IMG/VR virus record: IMGVR_UViG_3300032285_003393
Coordinates: 37,704 to 101,703 of that record
DNA: 64,000 nt
DNA from: a virus
Direction: 5' to 3' (one strand)
Shown: piece after piece, positions 7,183-64,000 of the stretch
How the letters are laid out: every line of letters starts with the position of its first letter
Numbering within the stretch: the first letter of the stretch is position 1
The notes under the pieces: generated by a model
The model's input: only the letters and a program-made list of their open reading frames with translations
The model's database searches: none
Told to the model about the DNA's origin: nothing
Translations under genes and position numbers: made by a program

Positions 7183-10100
7183 TATGATATCTCCTTTATG
7201 AATTTAGTACCATCATCTAGCATCCCGATGGTTGGAATGCAGAAAGAACCTGGTTTCATTTTCCCAAGTGCCAGTGTGTAAGTTTTTGGAAACGCAATCA
7301 CACGAAACATTTCTTTCTGCTCGTTGCAATATATGATGTGTGCCATCATTTTATTTGCCTTTGTTTTGTAATGGGTAAAGTCCACAACATAACTCTTATT
7401 TTCTGGAATACCCAAATCTTTATTGTGTAGATAGTTTACAAAAGGATCATCCTTTTTGTTTACTATGTCCTCTATTGTAACATACTTATGAATTCTATTA
7501 TCGCCAACAAGGAAAAAATACATGACTCCCGTCTCAATTTGTGTATTTTCTGTATGGAAAATACCAATAGAACCTGTATCATCTACCAGCTCAACACGGG
7601 ACCAGCCCTTGCCCTTCTTAATAGATTTTACCATAGCACATAATACGAAAACGCCTTCTTCAAGAAAATCTTCTAGTGGGTTAATCTGAGATTTAATATA
7701 TGGAGTAATCCCACGAGTATCAAACTTAGGTATACTTAGATATTCGTAATACTTCTCAGATTCTTCACCAGTTCGTGGATTATCCTCAAACGTTGCTGCT
7801 CCGATAATGTTGAGCGTAGATACTGCTCTTGAGTTGATTCCTGATCTTTTTGTTCCAGCCACTTCCAAAAGGTGAGCATATGACTTGAATGGTCTTGCAT
7901 TTATAATCTTCTTTCCTATATTTTCTGATATGTATTTTACATTAGAAAGACCAAATCTAATAGAATTACCTTGAATAATAAAGTCCAGCTCAGATTCATT
8001 TACATGTGGCAATAGTACTTTAATGCCAAGTCTCTTTGCTTCCAGCAAGTATTCTGTTCTGGTATCCTTATTGCCTTCGTTTTTCAACAAAGCAAATACA
8101 AATTCAAGTGGATAATAATGCTTTAGCCAAGCTGTCCAATAGGAAAGCATTGAATATGCTACAGCATGCGAACGGTTAAATGAATACCCAGCGTGTGCTT
8201 CAAAATCATGCCATAGATGCTCAGCATCTTCTTTGCTGATATATTGACGAGCACCCTCAATAAACTTATCTTTAAATACGTCAAACTCTCTTGCATCTTT
8301 CTTTTTACCAATAATCTTACGAACCTTATCAGCTTCAGACCATGACATCCCACCCAAGTGTACGCAAGCTTGCATAACCTGTTCCTGATAAATAATAACT
8401 CCATAGGTACGTTCTGTAAATGGTTGCATTATTGGATGAACATATTTAACTATTTTCTCCCCACGCTTGCGAGCAAGGTATTCGGCTCCAACAGTGTTCA
8501 TAGCACCTGGACGAACAAGAGCATTTGAAGCAACCATGTCTTCAAACTTATCTACACCCATTTTAATAAGAAGATTTGTGTATGGAGTTGCTTCTGCCTG
8601 AAACACACCTTTGGTAAAACCATTTGATAAATCTTCAAATACTGCTTTATCATCTAGTGATAAACTATTTAAATTAATATTCTTATTATGTCTATCTTTA
8701 ACTATCTTTAATGTATCTTGAATAACAGATAAAGTTTTAAGTCCAAGTACGTCAAATTTAATAAGACCTATCTCAGCAGCTTGATCCATATCATAAGCAA
8801 CAACAGGAACTCTTCCACTAACGTCATCGCTATTATCACTTCTGGTTTCAATCGGGGCATAAGTTGAAATTGGATCTTTAGCAACAACAACGCCTGCAGC
8901 ATGAATACCCACGCTACGGATGCGACCACGAAGATTAGAGGCAAACTCAATAACTTCAGGATATTTTTGCTTAAACCAGTCAACATTGCTATTAGATTCA
9001 AACTCTTCAAATGTCTCAACTCCTTTTAATGCTTTGTTAACTTCGCCAAGTGGAACATTAAATACACGAGCAGCATCACGAACAACACCTTTATCTTTAA
9101 AATATTGGTATGTTGAGATTGATGCTACATTTTTAAACTTCTTGCGAAGGAATTCTTTTACTTCTCCACGTCTACGATCCATAAAGTCTGTATCAATATC
9201 AGGAAAGTCATTACGCTCAGGATTAATAAAACGGAAAAATAGCAAGTCATATTCAATTGGATCTACTTCCGTAATTCCAAGTAAATAGCATACCAAAGAG
9301 CCTGCTGCTGAACCACGTCCTGGGCCAACCATAATTTCATTTTCTTTTGCCCAGCTAACCATGTCACTAACAACAAGGAAGTAACTGCTAAAATCTTTAT
9401 CCTTGATAACTTTTAATTCTTCTTCAAGTCTTTCTTTGTACACTTCACTATCTAATTTCTTTTCTGAAAGAGATAGATTACACAATTCAACTAACTGATT
9501 ATGTGCATCCTTTTTAGGTTTTGGAAGTAGTTGCAAATTCTCATGAAAATCATAGTCTCCAACTTTTTCTGCAACTTCCATTGTGTTTAAGTAAATATCT
9601 TCAGGCCACTCTTTTCCAAAGTCAGACTTAATCTCATCATAGGTTTGGATATAAACATTGATATCCTGAAAACTGATAGGACGATCTGGATAAAGATGAT
9701 TAAATCTGTCAAAGATATTTTTAATCTTTTTACCAGAGTCGTAGTCTGTTCCTTCTGCTTGGTTTGGCTTAGTTGATAAAATTAGAAGTGCTTCTTCAAG
9801 TGCTTTTTGGTCTTTTGTTGCATAATGGCAATCGCCAGTAGCAATAAGTTTAATACCCAACTTATCTGATATTTGTCGCAATCCATCATTAACTATTTTG
9901 TCATTATGTGATTGAACTTCAAGATAAAAGTCGTCACCAAATCTATTAACAAACCAGTTAGCATATACCATTGCTTTATCAATATCATCATTTTGTAAGG
10001 CTTTAGCAATAAGCCCATTCATACATCCAGATAATACGATGAGCCCATCCCCATATTCATCAAGAACTTCTAGGTCAATTCTAGGCTTACGGTAATATCC

Positions 10101-61443: not shown

Positions 61444-61667
61444 ATAATATATACTTAATTTGCTTAACATTGTTCAACTTCGTCCTATTTACAAATCTGC
61501 AAAAAGTGAGGGCGGAAAGTGAAAAGAACAAAATATTTTTTGAAGAATTGCCAATAGTGCATGAAGCTATTAGAACAAATAGCAATGATGCCATAGGGCA
61601 GGAATCTGTATTATTTGCAGATAAGTGGTTCTATAAAGAAGATCTCCAAGTAAGAGTAAGGTTATAG
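61440..61667 (+). CDS. Hypothetical protein with N-terminal hydrophobic segment
   Basis: 75-aa ORF, ATGA overlap with the HNH gene. Confidence 0.45.
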   Translation: MNNIYLICLTLFNFVLFTNLQKVRAESEKNKIFFEELPIVHEAIRTNSNDAIGQESVLFADKWFYKEDLQVRVRL

Positions 61668-61811
61668 GGTCAAATAAATTATATAAGGCCAATAGAGAGC
61701 CTTTTAGCTATATACCCTAGGGAAAGTATGTTCTAGACAGGAACAGTATTTCCAGAAGGCTTTCAGCCTTTATCCCGCCAATTAAAATAGAAAGTTGATA
61801 TACTGTATATA

Positions 61812-62597
61812 ATGGATGATTTAAATTTTACTGAGCATGATGATTTTGTACTCATATCTACAGATAAGTACTCATTCTTCGTTAAGAAAGATAATCTAAT
61901 TAATCTTAAAGATGGTCTTACTATGCACTATGAGCATAATGAAAAATTAACTAATGCTAGTGATGAAGACCTTGCTCAAATGCATAAAAAAAGACCTAAG
62001 AGGTCTGCTATAGACGAGATTAACTATCAGATAGAGAGAAAAGGGTTTGATAGTCAGATTATAGTCCCAAATCAATTGCTATCCCGCCTTCCTTTACAAT
62101 CTCAATCTAGAAATAGAAATGGTAAGCAACATATAGCCAATAAGAGATGGAATTTTGCTCTTAAAAATAGATTTGAAAAAGCTATTGCTCTAAATGAATA
62201 TTATAAAAAAGAATCTGCTTTTGTACAGACATTTTTAGAGCCAGATGAGCTATATTCACTTCCTAAAGGATCTTGGAAAGTTTCTCCATGTCATATTTAT
62301 CCTGCTTTGACTAATAGAGATGAGAACTCTTGGACTTCCGACAAAATTTGTAGAGATCTAGGTATCATGAATAAAGGTTATGAATACACTAAAGAGTCCC
62401 CACTTAAAGGTAGACATGCTATAAATAAAATGGAAGCTCTTGCAGCATTTAGATATATGTCTAAACTTGAATGGAATCAGATGTCTGCAACTCGTAAGGC
62501 CATGTATTATATTCTATGGTTTAGAATTAAGAATAATTTTTATGAGAAGTTTGATATCACCGATATTGGATTACATTTGTTTGATCCCGCCAATTAA
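61812..62597 (+). CDS. Hypothetical protein (261 aa)
   Basis: Long ORF 7 nt after TGATATACT; no family recognised. Confidence 0.65.
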   Translation: MDDLNFTEHDDFVLISTDKYSFFVKKDNLINLKDGLTMHYEHNEKLTNASDEDLAQMHKKRPKRSAIDEINYQIERKGFDSQIIVPNQLLSRLPLQSQSRNRNGKQHIANKRWNFALKNRFEKAIALNEYYKKESAFVQTFLEPDELYSLPKGSWKVSPCHIYPALTNRDENSWTSDKICRDLGIMNKGYEYTKESPLKGRHAINKMEALAAFRYMSKLEWNQMSATRKAMYYILWFRIKNNFYEKFDITDIGLHLFDPAN

Positions 62598-62721
62598 TTC
62601 TACTACTGCATGAATTTCAATTGGAGAAAATGTTAATAATTTTATAATTTGTATGATCCACGTTTTTGAAACAATTTAAAATTAGACATAGTGTGCCCAT
62701 ATGTCTAAAAATAGAGGTTTT

Positions 62722-62737
62722 TGTGACCTATCTCACA
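62722..62737. promoter_or_regulatory. CRP/FNR-family (CRP/GlxR-type) binding site
   Basis: Exact TGTGA-N6-TCACA upstream of a promoter. Confidence 0.6.
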
Positions 62738-62778
62738 AAGATTTTTTTAGAAATGTCCGAATTGTACGCATTTTGAAC

Positions 62779-62807
62779 TTGAAAATGTCAGTGGTCTGTG
62801 TTATAGT
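62779..62807 (+). promoter_or_regulatory. Early-type promoter P1
   Basis: TTGAAA, 17-bp spacer containing TGTCAGT, TG-n-TATAGT. Confidence 0.7.
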
Positions 62808-62836
62808 TACACTATAACAATTAAATAAGAATAAAT

Positions 62837-62910
62837 CCTAGATGAGCCTCTGAGCCTTAGCAAATAATCCGAAAGGTGAGCCTAAGCAAATAAGAGCAAA
62901 TAATTCTAGG
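62837..62910 (+). ncRNA. Candidate structured leader RNA with three identical internal loops; family not recognised
   Basis: Nested stems CCUAGA/UCUAGG, CUC/GAG, CUUAG/CUAAG, CC/GG capped by GAAA, separated by three UGAGC / CAAAUAA loops. Confidence 0.65.
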
Positions 62911-62961
62911 CAAGGAAATAAGTTAGAAAGTCTAACTTAATTAAATGAAAGGTTCATAATA

Positions 62962-63192
62962 ATGAATACTAATAATTACTATAATGAAATCCGTACCGAA
63001 ATCGGTATAGAGTTTGGTCTAGAGTCACTAGGCTATGGTGTAAAGGATACTCGTATCCCCGTCCGTATTGCTCAGCGAATTGCTGATAAGTACCCTAGCG
63101 ACTTTTCTAATGGTCGCTTTAATGTAGTGCTTAATCCTAAAGCAGTACTAATTGCTAAACGTTACCGCTCCCTAGTTATGGGGGTTAAGTAA
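62962..63192 (+). CDS. Small hypothetical early protein
   Basis: 76 aa, GAAAGG RBS. Confidence 0.7.
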   Translation: MNTNNYYNEIRTEIGIEFGLESLGYGVKDTRIPVRIAQRIADKYPSDFSNGRFNVVLNPKAVLIAKRYRSLVMGVK

Positions 63193-63335
63193 TGTCATAC
63201 TCTTTTGATAAAACCTATGACCGATGGGCTGAATTGTCCGATGGTTACCAATCTGTACTAGATGAATTGGCTAATGATGAATTACCCGATGTCTTTATTC
63301 CCGTTTCTAATTTTGATGTAGAGGAGATACTATAA
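63192..63335 (+). CDS. Small acidic hypothetical protein (47 aa)
   Basis: Hand translation MSYSFDKTYDRWAELSDGYQSVLDELANDELPDVFIPVSNFDVEEIL; TAATG coupling. Confidence 0.65.
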   Translation: MSYSFDKTYDRWAELSDGYQSVLDELANDELPDVFIPVSNFDVEEIL

Positions 63336-63491
63336 ATGAAAATCACATACTCGTTATGGCAAGGGGCTAACCTATTGTCTACAGGTAACACCGCCAATAA
63401 ACCCGAAGAAATCCTAGAGGTTATTAGCGAATTAAATAAACTAGGTAAGGGCTTTACCTATAATGTAAGAGCAGTAGAGGTAAATAAATAA
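63336..63491 (+). CDS. Small hypothetical protein (51 aa)
   Basis: MKITYSLWQGANLLSTG...VEVNK; GAGGAG RBS; abuts upstream stop. Confidence 0.65.
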   Translation: MKITYSLWQGANLLSTGNTANKPEEILEVISELNKLGKGFTYNVRAVEVNK

Positions 63492-63664
63492 TGATGACTC
63501 GTAAAGACTATGTAAAGGTTGCTGATATTCTTTCAGGATATTCGCATGCGATGATAGATAACTTTTGGTGGGAAGATTTGGTAAATGATTTTGCTTTAAT
63601 GTTTGAGCAAGATAATCCAAACTTTAATCGTGAACAATTTACTAAAGCTTGCGAATTAGATTGA
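63491..63664 (+). CDS. Small phage protein of the MTRKDY...DNPxF..F..AC type (57 aa)
   Basis: MMTRKDYVKVADIL...FEQDNPNFNREQFTKAC; GAGGT RBS; TAATG coupling. Confidence 0.72.
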   Translation: MMTRKDYVKVADILSGYSHAMIDNFWWEDLVNDFALMFEQDNPNFNREQFTKACELD

Positions 63665-63716
63665 ACATGATCACAGTAAGGTAGTTGATAATTCAACTAT
63701 TTTGCTGCGCCCCGCC

Positions 63717-63792
63717 TGTGGTGTAAATCACAAAAATAAATCTACGACACGCCCGAAAAACACCCCAATTTGTCAGTCCCCCATGCTATAAT
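63717..63792 (+). promoter_or_regulatory. Early-type promoter P2 with upstream CRP-like box
   Basis: TGTGG-N6-TCACA (63717-32), TGTCAGT (63771-77), TGCTATAAT (63784-92). Confidence 0.7.
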
Positions 63793-64000
63793 TCCTACAT
63801 AACAACAACAAGAAAGGTTCATCACTATGAACACTGTTTATCTGATTGACTACATGTATGAGGGTCCTCTTACTGTTGCATTTTCTACACTAGAAAAGGC
63901 TCAAGCCTTTATCGCCAACAACGAGCATATAGCGGACATGCTTAGTGTGATTAGTATCACAGTAGATGAAGTCTAAAAACACCCCAATTTGTCAGTCCCC
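63756..64000 (+). repeat. Identical 26-bp direct repeats bounding a mini-gene (second copy cut by the window edge)
   Basis: AAAAACACCCCAATTTGTCAGTCCCC at 63756-63781 and 63975-64000. Confidence 0.92.
63827..63976 (+). CDS. Small hypothetical protein (49 aa)
   Basis: MNTVYLIDYMYEGPLTVAFSTLEKAQAFIANNEHIADMLSVISITVDEV; AGAAAGG RBS. Confidence 0.72.
   Translation: MNTVYLIDYMYEGPLTVAFSTLEKAQAFIANNEHIADMLSVISITVDEV

Follow-up and report, generated by a model that had tools for sequence, protein, structure and literature searches.

A rod-shaped element of repeated internal loops with covarying stems in predicted early leaders of a large group of uncultivated phages

The lambda nut sites, of which there are two per genome, lie at the promoter-proximal head of the early operons and comprise boxA and boxB, with N as the protein, and the recognition element of boxB is its GNRA-like terminal loop. 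The CsrB/RsmZ sponges are free-standing sRNAs that have terminators and repeat a short motif (GGA), the site of the protein CsrA, in hairpin loops; the scaffold is variable and homologues differ in copy number. Conserved irregular RNase III hairpins are carried by the early mRNAs of T7 and SP82/SPO1. The sites of the virulent phages T7 and SP82 are located between genes, with a single loop flanked on both sides by helices of about 10 bp; in a T7 R1.1-type substrate the one internal loop interrupts roughly two turns of helix that is mostly Watson-Crick. The put RNA of HK022 binds the zinc-binding domain of the RNA polymerase beta' subunit and suppresses pausing and termination without a protein factor. 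The put RNAs (putL and putR) are about 70 nt in length, are located after early promoters, number two per genome, need no protein, and act on the polymerase of their own transcript, and their fold is a V of two neighboring stem-loops with a short triplex, in which conserved bulges and loops matter (PMC9378689).

Here we describe a 74-nt element, predicted to form an RNA hairpin that we refer to as the rod, at positions 62837-62910 of a 64,000-nucleotide stretch of DNA (the window), which corresponds to bases 37704-101703 of the 101,703-bp IMG/VR virus record of an uncultivated phage of about 100 kb. It contains three copies of one small internal loop, UGAGC / CAAAUAA(U), and resembles put in its ~70-nt size, its place after an early promoter, and its low copy number. 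It is, however, a single nested rod of repeated identical loops with variable copy number and not a V shape, there is no sequence or model similarity to put, and its host is not enteric. With nut it shares a promoter-proximal place at the head of an early operon and a hairpin with conserved linear flanks (5', AAUUAAAUAA; 3', CAAGGAAA), but the pattern of conservation is the opposite of that in boxB, with a terminal loop that varies (44 apical hairpins) and internal loops that are invariant; no boxA consensus was found, and no N-like gene among the 35 early ORFs scanned. As in the CsrB/RsmZ sponges, a short motif is repeated on a variable scaffold in numbers that differ among homologues, whereas the sites of the rod are internal loops nested in one rod within an mRNA leader. 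The T7 and SP82 RNase III sites are likewise irregular hairpins with asymmetric internal loops that are located in the early region and are few per genome; the rod differs from these in its helices of 2-6 bp, in having up to three 5x7/8 loops, and in being promoter-proximal.

Architecture of the rod and its leader

A first-pass annotation made from the sequence alone proposed four stems (P1 to P4), a closing GAAA tetraloop, and three identical internal loops, the third with its strands swapped. All of these segments are present base for base, with TGAGC at 62843, 62851, and 62877 and CAAATAA at 62861, 62887, and 62897, and ViennaRNA returns the same structure as both the minimum free energy (MFE) and the centroid fold. 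A C-G pair was also proposed to close each loop, and this holds for the rod in the window but not as a universal rule, with G-C or A-U beside the flipped loop in homologues. The order of the segments is CCUAGA-UGAGC-CUC-UGAGC-CUUAG-CAAAUAAU-CC-GAAA-GG-UGAGC-CUAAG-CAAAUAA-GAG-CAAAUAAU-UCUAGG. The linear 17-mer TGAGCCTWAGCAAATAA is present twice as compared with 0.09 expected occurrences, such that the repeats are beyond chance. The features of the leader are as follows; the loop strands and the 3' strands of P1, P2, and P3 were seen directly in the sequence.

62722..62737, + strand: CRP-type box, a perfect TGTGA-N6-TCACA, upstream of promoter P1; the first such box in the cassette array
62779..62807, + strand: promoter P1, TTGAAA-17-TATAGT with a TG extension; predicted transcript start near 62814
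62819..62828, + strand: AAUUAAAUAA, conserved single-stranded 5' leader segment (67/104 elements)
62837..62842, + strand: stem P1, 5' strand CCUAGA; pairs with 62905-62910 in the MFE fold; covaries in homologues (CCUG/CAGG, CCUAG/CUAGG)
62843..62847, + strand: loop 1, strand a, UGAGC; the same in homologous leaders
62848..62850, + strand: stem P2, 5' strand CUC; pairs with GAG at 62894-62896; CUGU/ACAG in L004 and L011
62851..62855, + strand: loop 2, strand a, UGAGC
62856..62860, + strand: stem P3, 5' strand CUUAG; pairs with CUAAG at 62882-62886; axis of the two-fold symmetric unit
62861..62868, + strand: loop 3 (flipped), strand b, CAAAUAA + U
62869..62876, + strand: stem P4, CC (62869-70) / GG (62875-76), with the GAAA tetraloop at 62871-74; apical hairpin, varies freely among homologues
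62877..62881, + strand: loop 3 (flipped), strand a, UGAGC
62882..62886, + strand: stem P3, 3' strand CUAAG
62887..62893, + strand: loop 2, strand b, CAAAUAA
62894..62896, + strand: stem P2, 3' strand GAG
62897..62904, + strand: loop 1, strand b, CAAAUAA + U
62905..62910, + strand: stem P1, 3' strand UCUAGG
62911..62918, + strand: CAAGGAAA, linear 3' flank, conserved in CCUAG-type elements of homologous leaders
62919..62939, + strand: second leader hairpin, perfect 9 bp (62919-27/62931-39) with loop AAG; also in related leaders without the rod
62947..62964, + strand: SD GAAAGG (62947-52) and ATG (62962) of a 76-aa early ORF, neither of which is sequestered by the rod

The location of promoter P1 places the start of transcription near 62814, such that the rod would begin at about +23 in a leader of about 148 nt; the perfect 9-bp hairpin and the ribosome binding site noted in the first-pass annotation are also in place beyond the rod. 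The AAUUAAAUAA segment is typical of this promoter class with or without a rod, and has 226 occurrences, with an element following in 67. The loop of the second hairpin usually exposes an SD-like AAGG or AAAGG in homologous leaders, and this hairpin may be a standby or decoy ribosome site.

Several other features of the region were noted. A 9-bp inverted repeat, TGTTATAGT-tac-ACTATAACA, at 62799-62819 in the window covers the -10 box and the predicted P1 start, and similar palindromes lie over the -10 in most promoters of the P1 class in related contigs, and this overlap suggests a DNA operator. A box, CGACACGCC / GGCGTGTCG, is located in either orientation just upstream of the -35 region in most cassette promoters (at 63746-63754 in the window, and at many related loci), often within a GC-rich hairpin without a U tract. 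No family could be assigned to the product of the 76-aa early ORF, for which an AlphaFold model gives three helices with a pLDDT of 60. Autoregulation by this protein was considered and set aside, as it has no family and the model is too poor for a structure search.

Comparative evidence for the fold

The folding energy of the rod (-12.1 kcal/mol) is the same as that of shuffled sequences (-12.06 kcal/mol, z = -0.02; ViennaRNA), and thermodynamics alone therefore gives the fold no support. Inclusion of the second hairpin gives z = -1.04, and the five rod examples tested are no better than shuffles (z of 0 to -0.6). In view of this weak stability and the very short stems, non-canonical pairs or a bound partner must hold the loops in place.

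Homologues of the 76-aa ORF have leaders that can be compared directly. L004 and L011 have triple rods and L009 has one module, and in these leaders the loops are constant and every stem is changed with compensation (P2 to CUGU/ACAG and P3 to CUAC/GUAG), with P4 replaced by ACUA-GAAA-UAGU or CCGA-UUA-UCGG. The constancy of UGAGC is an independent observation in these leaders, which were found via the 76-aa protein, whereas the larger sets described below were collected on UGAGC itself. The rod is absent from the homologous leaders L005, L008, L012, and L013. A fourth module lies outside the window at G000:378-408 (CCUG-UGAGC-CUUA-GAAA-UAAG-CAAAUAAU-CAGG), with the loop as in the rod and different stems.

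A pattern search of IMG/VR, in which three loop strings were fixed and P3 complementarity was not demanded, yielded at least 119 loci; among the matches listed, the fourth loop string is present in 97, and P3 is perfectly complementary in 95 of these 97. The module recurs with compensating stem changes in more than 100 related phage contigs. The 80 unique double units fall into seven types by P3 and 30 by outer stem, with 44 different apical hairpins, and the outer stems are fully paired in 62 of the 80 as compared with 12% in a control in which strands of different units were cross-paired. A set of 77 distinct double units aligned with MAFFT from sequence alone has a covariation score of 0.534; shuffles give 0.140 +/- 0.012, with none of 500 as high, and slid partners 0.05-0.17. 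Both sides change in 10 of the 11 pairs of the double unit. GC/GU/AU series are common in the stems, and these wobble series together with the frequent GNRA apical loops point to RNA; counts of G.U versus A.C on the MAFFT alignment are confounded by register shifts.

We judge the fold to be real from this comparative evidence, that is, the homologous leaders and the IMG/VR units, and not from its energy. The pattern anticipated in the first-pass annotation, of stems that vary around invariant loops, is borne out by covariation of all four stems in the homologues and at at least 95 further IMG/VR sites. It was also anticipated that a double-stranded DNA operator or iteron would keep the linear repeats in homologues and lose stem complementarity, and the opposite is seen: stem complementarity is kept and the linear repeats diverge, which excludes a dsDNA operator and indicates a folded single strand. 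The spacers of the repeats evolve as reverse complements (CUAC/GUAG etc.), and in the single module at G000:378-408 the linear 17-mer is split by 7 nt and yet the module is still perfect.

The consensus of the module is an asymmetric internal loop, 5'-(R)UGAGC-N-U... / ...A-N'-CAAAUAA(R or U)-3', with a CGAAUAA variant in a minority of copies. The first pair past the loop is mostly C-G, and also G-C or A-U, and the second is almost always U-A; extra flanking purines covary as A.G or G.A at 40 of 79 clear-stem outer junctions and at 43 of 59 clear-stem inner junctions. Modules are arranged singly (a-hairpin-b), nested (a-a-hairpin-b-b), as a symmetric pair (a-P3-b-hairpin-a-P3'-b), or as a triple, and the commonest unit has two loops related by two-fold symmetry about a helix of 4-5 bp; this helix, P3, is constantly 4-5 bp in length in the symmetric pair, and the nested spacer P2 is 3-9 bp. 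We know of no natural counterpart for a small loop block that works in both orientations and nested. Among the 44 apical hairpins GAAA, GCAA, and GUAA loops are common, and at L065, L116, L052, and about 30 other loci the apical hairpin is the TGTGA-N6-TCACA (CRP-type) palindrome of the directly following promoter, such that in many double units one stretch doubles as RNA stem and DNA site.

The loop, with its GAG and UAA letters, may resemble the UAA/GAN internal-loop motif. A K-turn, which is a three-nucleotide bulge followed by tandem sheared G.A/A.G pairs, was rejected because strand b (CAAAUAA) has no G where one is required. A pseudoknot partner for the loop was also considered and rejected, with TTATTTG absent nearby and the occurrences of GCTCA inconsistently placed.

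Distribution and genomic position

The rod was not initially recognized as a known riboswitch or ribozyme, and an Rfam 15 cmscan of 61500-64000 agrees, with no match at or near the gathering score and, at E<=10, no match but a chance SNORD42 elsewhere. Among 50,697 phage records, blastn found nothing significant with either the region or just the rod as query. R1, a covariance model of the single module, has no match in 301 sampled actinobacterial genomes, three other genomes, or the Streptomyces phages Sham and Gilson; its third match in G000 (8120-8185) is inside a coding region and is not a module, and a pattern scan of bacterial genomes, in which all of the matches listed (120) are chance, is uninformative on hosts. 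The loop strings and the motif were not found in the literature searched, and by these comparisons the rod matches no RNA family described there or in Rfam 15. Fremin et al. (2023) reported 8,495 novel candidate structured RNAs from IMG/VR intergenic regions, identified by covariation (PMC10690425), which are similar to the rod in data source (IMG/VR) and in type of evidence (phage intergenic covariation); the main text of that paper does not describe the motif, which may be among its 8,495 unnamed candidates. All true instances have one promoter architecture, and the motif therefore belongs to one large clade, within which it is patchy, several large relatives and several homologous leaders being without the element.

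The gene content suggests that the phage host is probably actinobacterial, as a WhiB-like gene (PF02467, 37.3 bits; L256, G000:22977-23150, minus strand) and a GP88-family gene (PF17338; L261:4581-5303) both point to such a host. The capsid protein is 55% identical to its Streptomyces Stanwilliamsviridae counterpart and has relatives encoded on at least 597 IMG/VR contigs, and the hosts of the group are probably abundant lake actinobacteria. The phage has a G+C content of ~35%, and a DUF932 gene is located at L261:8552-9583. The record has a 123-bp terminal overlap. Near-identical promoter cassettes (AACACCCCAATTTGTCAGTCCCCCATGCTATAAT) are repeated at 63758-63800 and 63977-64000 of the window, the latter continuing at G000:100-140, and one of these copies is inside the overlap, such that the 'direct terminal repeat' may merely mark a circular assembly. 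A candidate replication origin, with three perfect DnaA boxes (TTATCCACA) and three one-mismatch boxes within 240 bp, is located outside the window at L261/G000:15014-15249, in the non-coding gap where the early array meets opposite-strand genes; a further perfect DnaA box is at G000:2629.

A promoter-like site lies within 80 nt upstream of 93 of the 104 unique elements, and the end of the -10 box is 19-46 nt upstream of the first UGAGC. Spacing between element and start codon is less strict (22-140 nt, sd 28). The element is in the 5' UTR and on the sense strand only, with an SD downstream of it in 90 of 116 cases, and it never pairs with the SD. A second promoter (TGTCAG type) within 40 nt downstream of the element is present in 23 of 102 cases, which argues against control of the translation of the next gene. 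The ORFs after the element, of 30-100 aa, belong to more than 30 unrelated families, and no Pfam family was found for these small ORFs. Near-complete genomes of ~100 kb carry one to three elements (a triple and one single in G000, and one each in G154-G157), with additional elements, where present, clustered within ~2 kb.

In all five genomes examined the strands switch divergently 0.3-4 kb before the element, which occupies one of the first three promoter cassettes in a co-directional array of small early genes with 10-25 promoter-like sites; in G000 and G155 this is the very first cassette. The initial placement of the rod at the head of the early region is supported. In G000 the co-directional array extends for ~19 kb, from ~97.3 kb across the record end to a strong intrinsic terminator at L261/G000:14770-14800 (CCCCCACGG-loop-CCGUGGGGG and UUUUU, -18.8 kcal/mol). 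Within the array terminators are only weak, an example being the hairpin at 63682-63699 of the window, and a simple scan found no excess of intrinsic terminators (9 versus 8.5 expected); a second scan gave 13 terminator-like hairpins on the sense strand and 40 on the other. Every cassette of the array has its own promoter.

No N-like or other RNA-binding protein was found among the 35 early-array ORFs in Pfam or PHROGs scans, and a 44-aa basic ORF (G000:2442-2573) resembles the L5 gp78 cluster as an Atlas lead only. Paralogous proteins of 36-73 aa with a DnaJ-like CxxCxGxG...CxC zinc motif are very common 0.07-3.5 kb downstream of elements, and a family with an HGG(V/I)K motif is very common in related early arrays. 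The zinc-finger mini-proteins were considered as a partner and rejected, as they are acidic and nothing ties them to the element.

Possible functions of the rod

We tentatively favor a nut/put-like element on the nascent first early transcript, the most likely of the readings considered. The sense strand, almost certainly as RNA, folds into a rod with one to three structured asymmetric internal loops, which would be complete before the polymerase is about 100 nt beyond promoter escape, at the head of the ~19-kb early array. While still nascent, the transcript of the first early promoter(s) would present a multivalent recognition platform with one binding site per loop, and the symmetric two-loop unit, with its axis through the 4-5 bp helix, would suit a symmetric dimer. 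The rod would act on RNA polymerase either directly, by binding to it, or through a factor that it delivers, and would thereby alter the elongation properties of that polymerase. The fold, its modularity, its place, its copy number, and its indifference to the downstream gene are observed; we infer the action as RNA, the binding of a partner, and the effect on transcription. In favor of such an element are the tight link to the transcript start, the head-of-array place, a copy number of one to three per genome, and the lack of dependence on the gene downstream; the absence of a terminator excess, the presence of a promoter in each cassette, an architecture unlike put and unlike nut, and the lack of an RNA-binding partner among the 35 ORFs argue against it. 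The analogy with nut and put drawn in the first-pass annotation thus stands for promoter-proximal position and copy number, and does not for architecture or for an accumulation of intrinsic terminators. It is also possible, if doubtful, that the modules constitute a new modular RNA class, a self-sufficient protein-free or dimer-binding unit that would reprogram host RNA polymerase or neutralize a host RNA-binding or defense protein; its scope would be a unit usable in either orientation and self-nesting, at the head of the early array in a very large group of freshwater actinophages.

Ranked below the nut/put-like element, and nearly as likely, is a multivalent RNA decoy or sponge that would be expressed at once from the first early promoter and bind one protein copy per loop, thereby sequestering a host RNA-binding, RNase, or defense protein or buffering a phage protein. 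Module number and arrangement vary freely (single, nested, symmetric double, triple), and free variation in module number is typical of sponge RNAs such as CsrB/RsmZ; the element is also independent of the downstream gene, is located at the head of the earliest transcripts, and in many contigs is followed by a next gene with its own promoter, such that the rod is like a separate unit. A sponge is, however, less readily reconciled with just one to three loci per genome of one to three modules each, or with the lack of a terminator or defined 3' end after the rod; moreover, absence of the motif from the 301 sampled actinobacterial genomes leaves no host mimic in sight, and to our knowledge actinobacteria are without CsrA, Hfq, and ProQ. 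A location in the 5' UTR, on the sense strand only and upstream of the SD in 90/116, with invariant loops and a symmetric site pair that suit a dimeric repressor, would also fit a post-transcriptional operator, at which a phage protein (RegA/RegB-like or Com-like) or a host protein on the loops alters translation or decay of the immediate-early mRNA; immediate-early phage genes often need shut-off. We regard this as rather unlikely given the loose start-codon distance, an SD that is never occluded, the unrelated downstream genes, and the second promoter that often intervenes and from which many transcripts would escape control, and the ~20 unpaired A/U-rich nucleotides before the rod argue against a 5'-terminal stabilizer.

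A rod with internal loops and two-fold pseudo-symmetry, found only a few times per genome in the region for early host takeover, is reminiscent of the RNase III hairpins of T7 and SP82/SPO1 early mRNAs, and a dimeric RNase III-type enzyme could cut it as a quasi-continuous rod. Processing of this type is nonetheless improbable, as the Watson-Crick helices of 2-6 bp are far under one helical turn, the 12-13 invariant loop letters exceed RNase III needs, and the element is promoter-proximal and not intercistronic. Two readings are less probable again, and we would give little weight to either. Invariant internal loops, variable stems, and tandem sites are features of a tandem small-molecule or ion aptamer (riboswitch-like, with one ligand per loop), and the CRP-type boxes at neighboring promoters would tie early expression to host physiology, but there is no expression platform (neither a terminator nor SD sequestration), no link to one gene class or pathway in the more than 30 unrelated small ORF families downstream, and no Rfam match, and twelve conserved letters are few for a natural aptamer. 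The other is a single-stranded DNA hairpin of the non-template strand, acting as an R-loop origin, a primosome site, or a REP/MITE-like mobile hairpin, the dsDNA operator being the weakest form of a DNA element. Covariation cannot separate RNA from sense-strand ssDNA, C-GAAA-G mini-hairpins are very stable in DNA too, and the element is patchy in homologous leaders (present in two as a rod and absent from four) with few copies per genome; a likelier origin, however, is the DnaA-box cluster 14.6 kb away (G000:15014-15249), nearly all elements are within a predicted transcribed leader and in the orientation of transcription, and G.U intermediates are common.

Whether as a nut/put-like element or otherwise, the rod marks the very first predicted early transcripts of a large phage group, and its building block, of about 13 invariant letters and one covarying purine-purine pair, works in either orientation and nested. 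At 31 nt, the single-module hairpin is of a size suited to NMR or crystallography, and knowledge of the partner of the rod could supply synthetic biology with a compact, orthogonal module of the RNA-protein or RNA-polymerase kind. Identification of that partner could show how uncultivated phages begin the takeover of their hosts.
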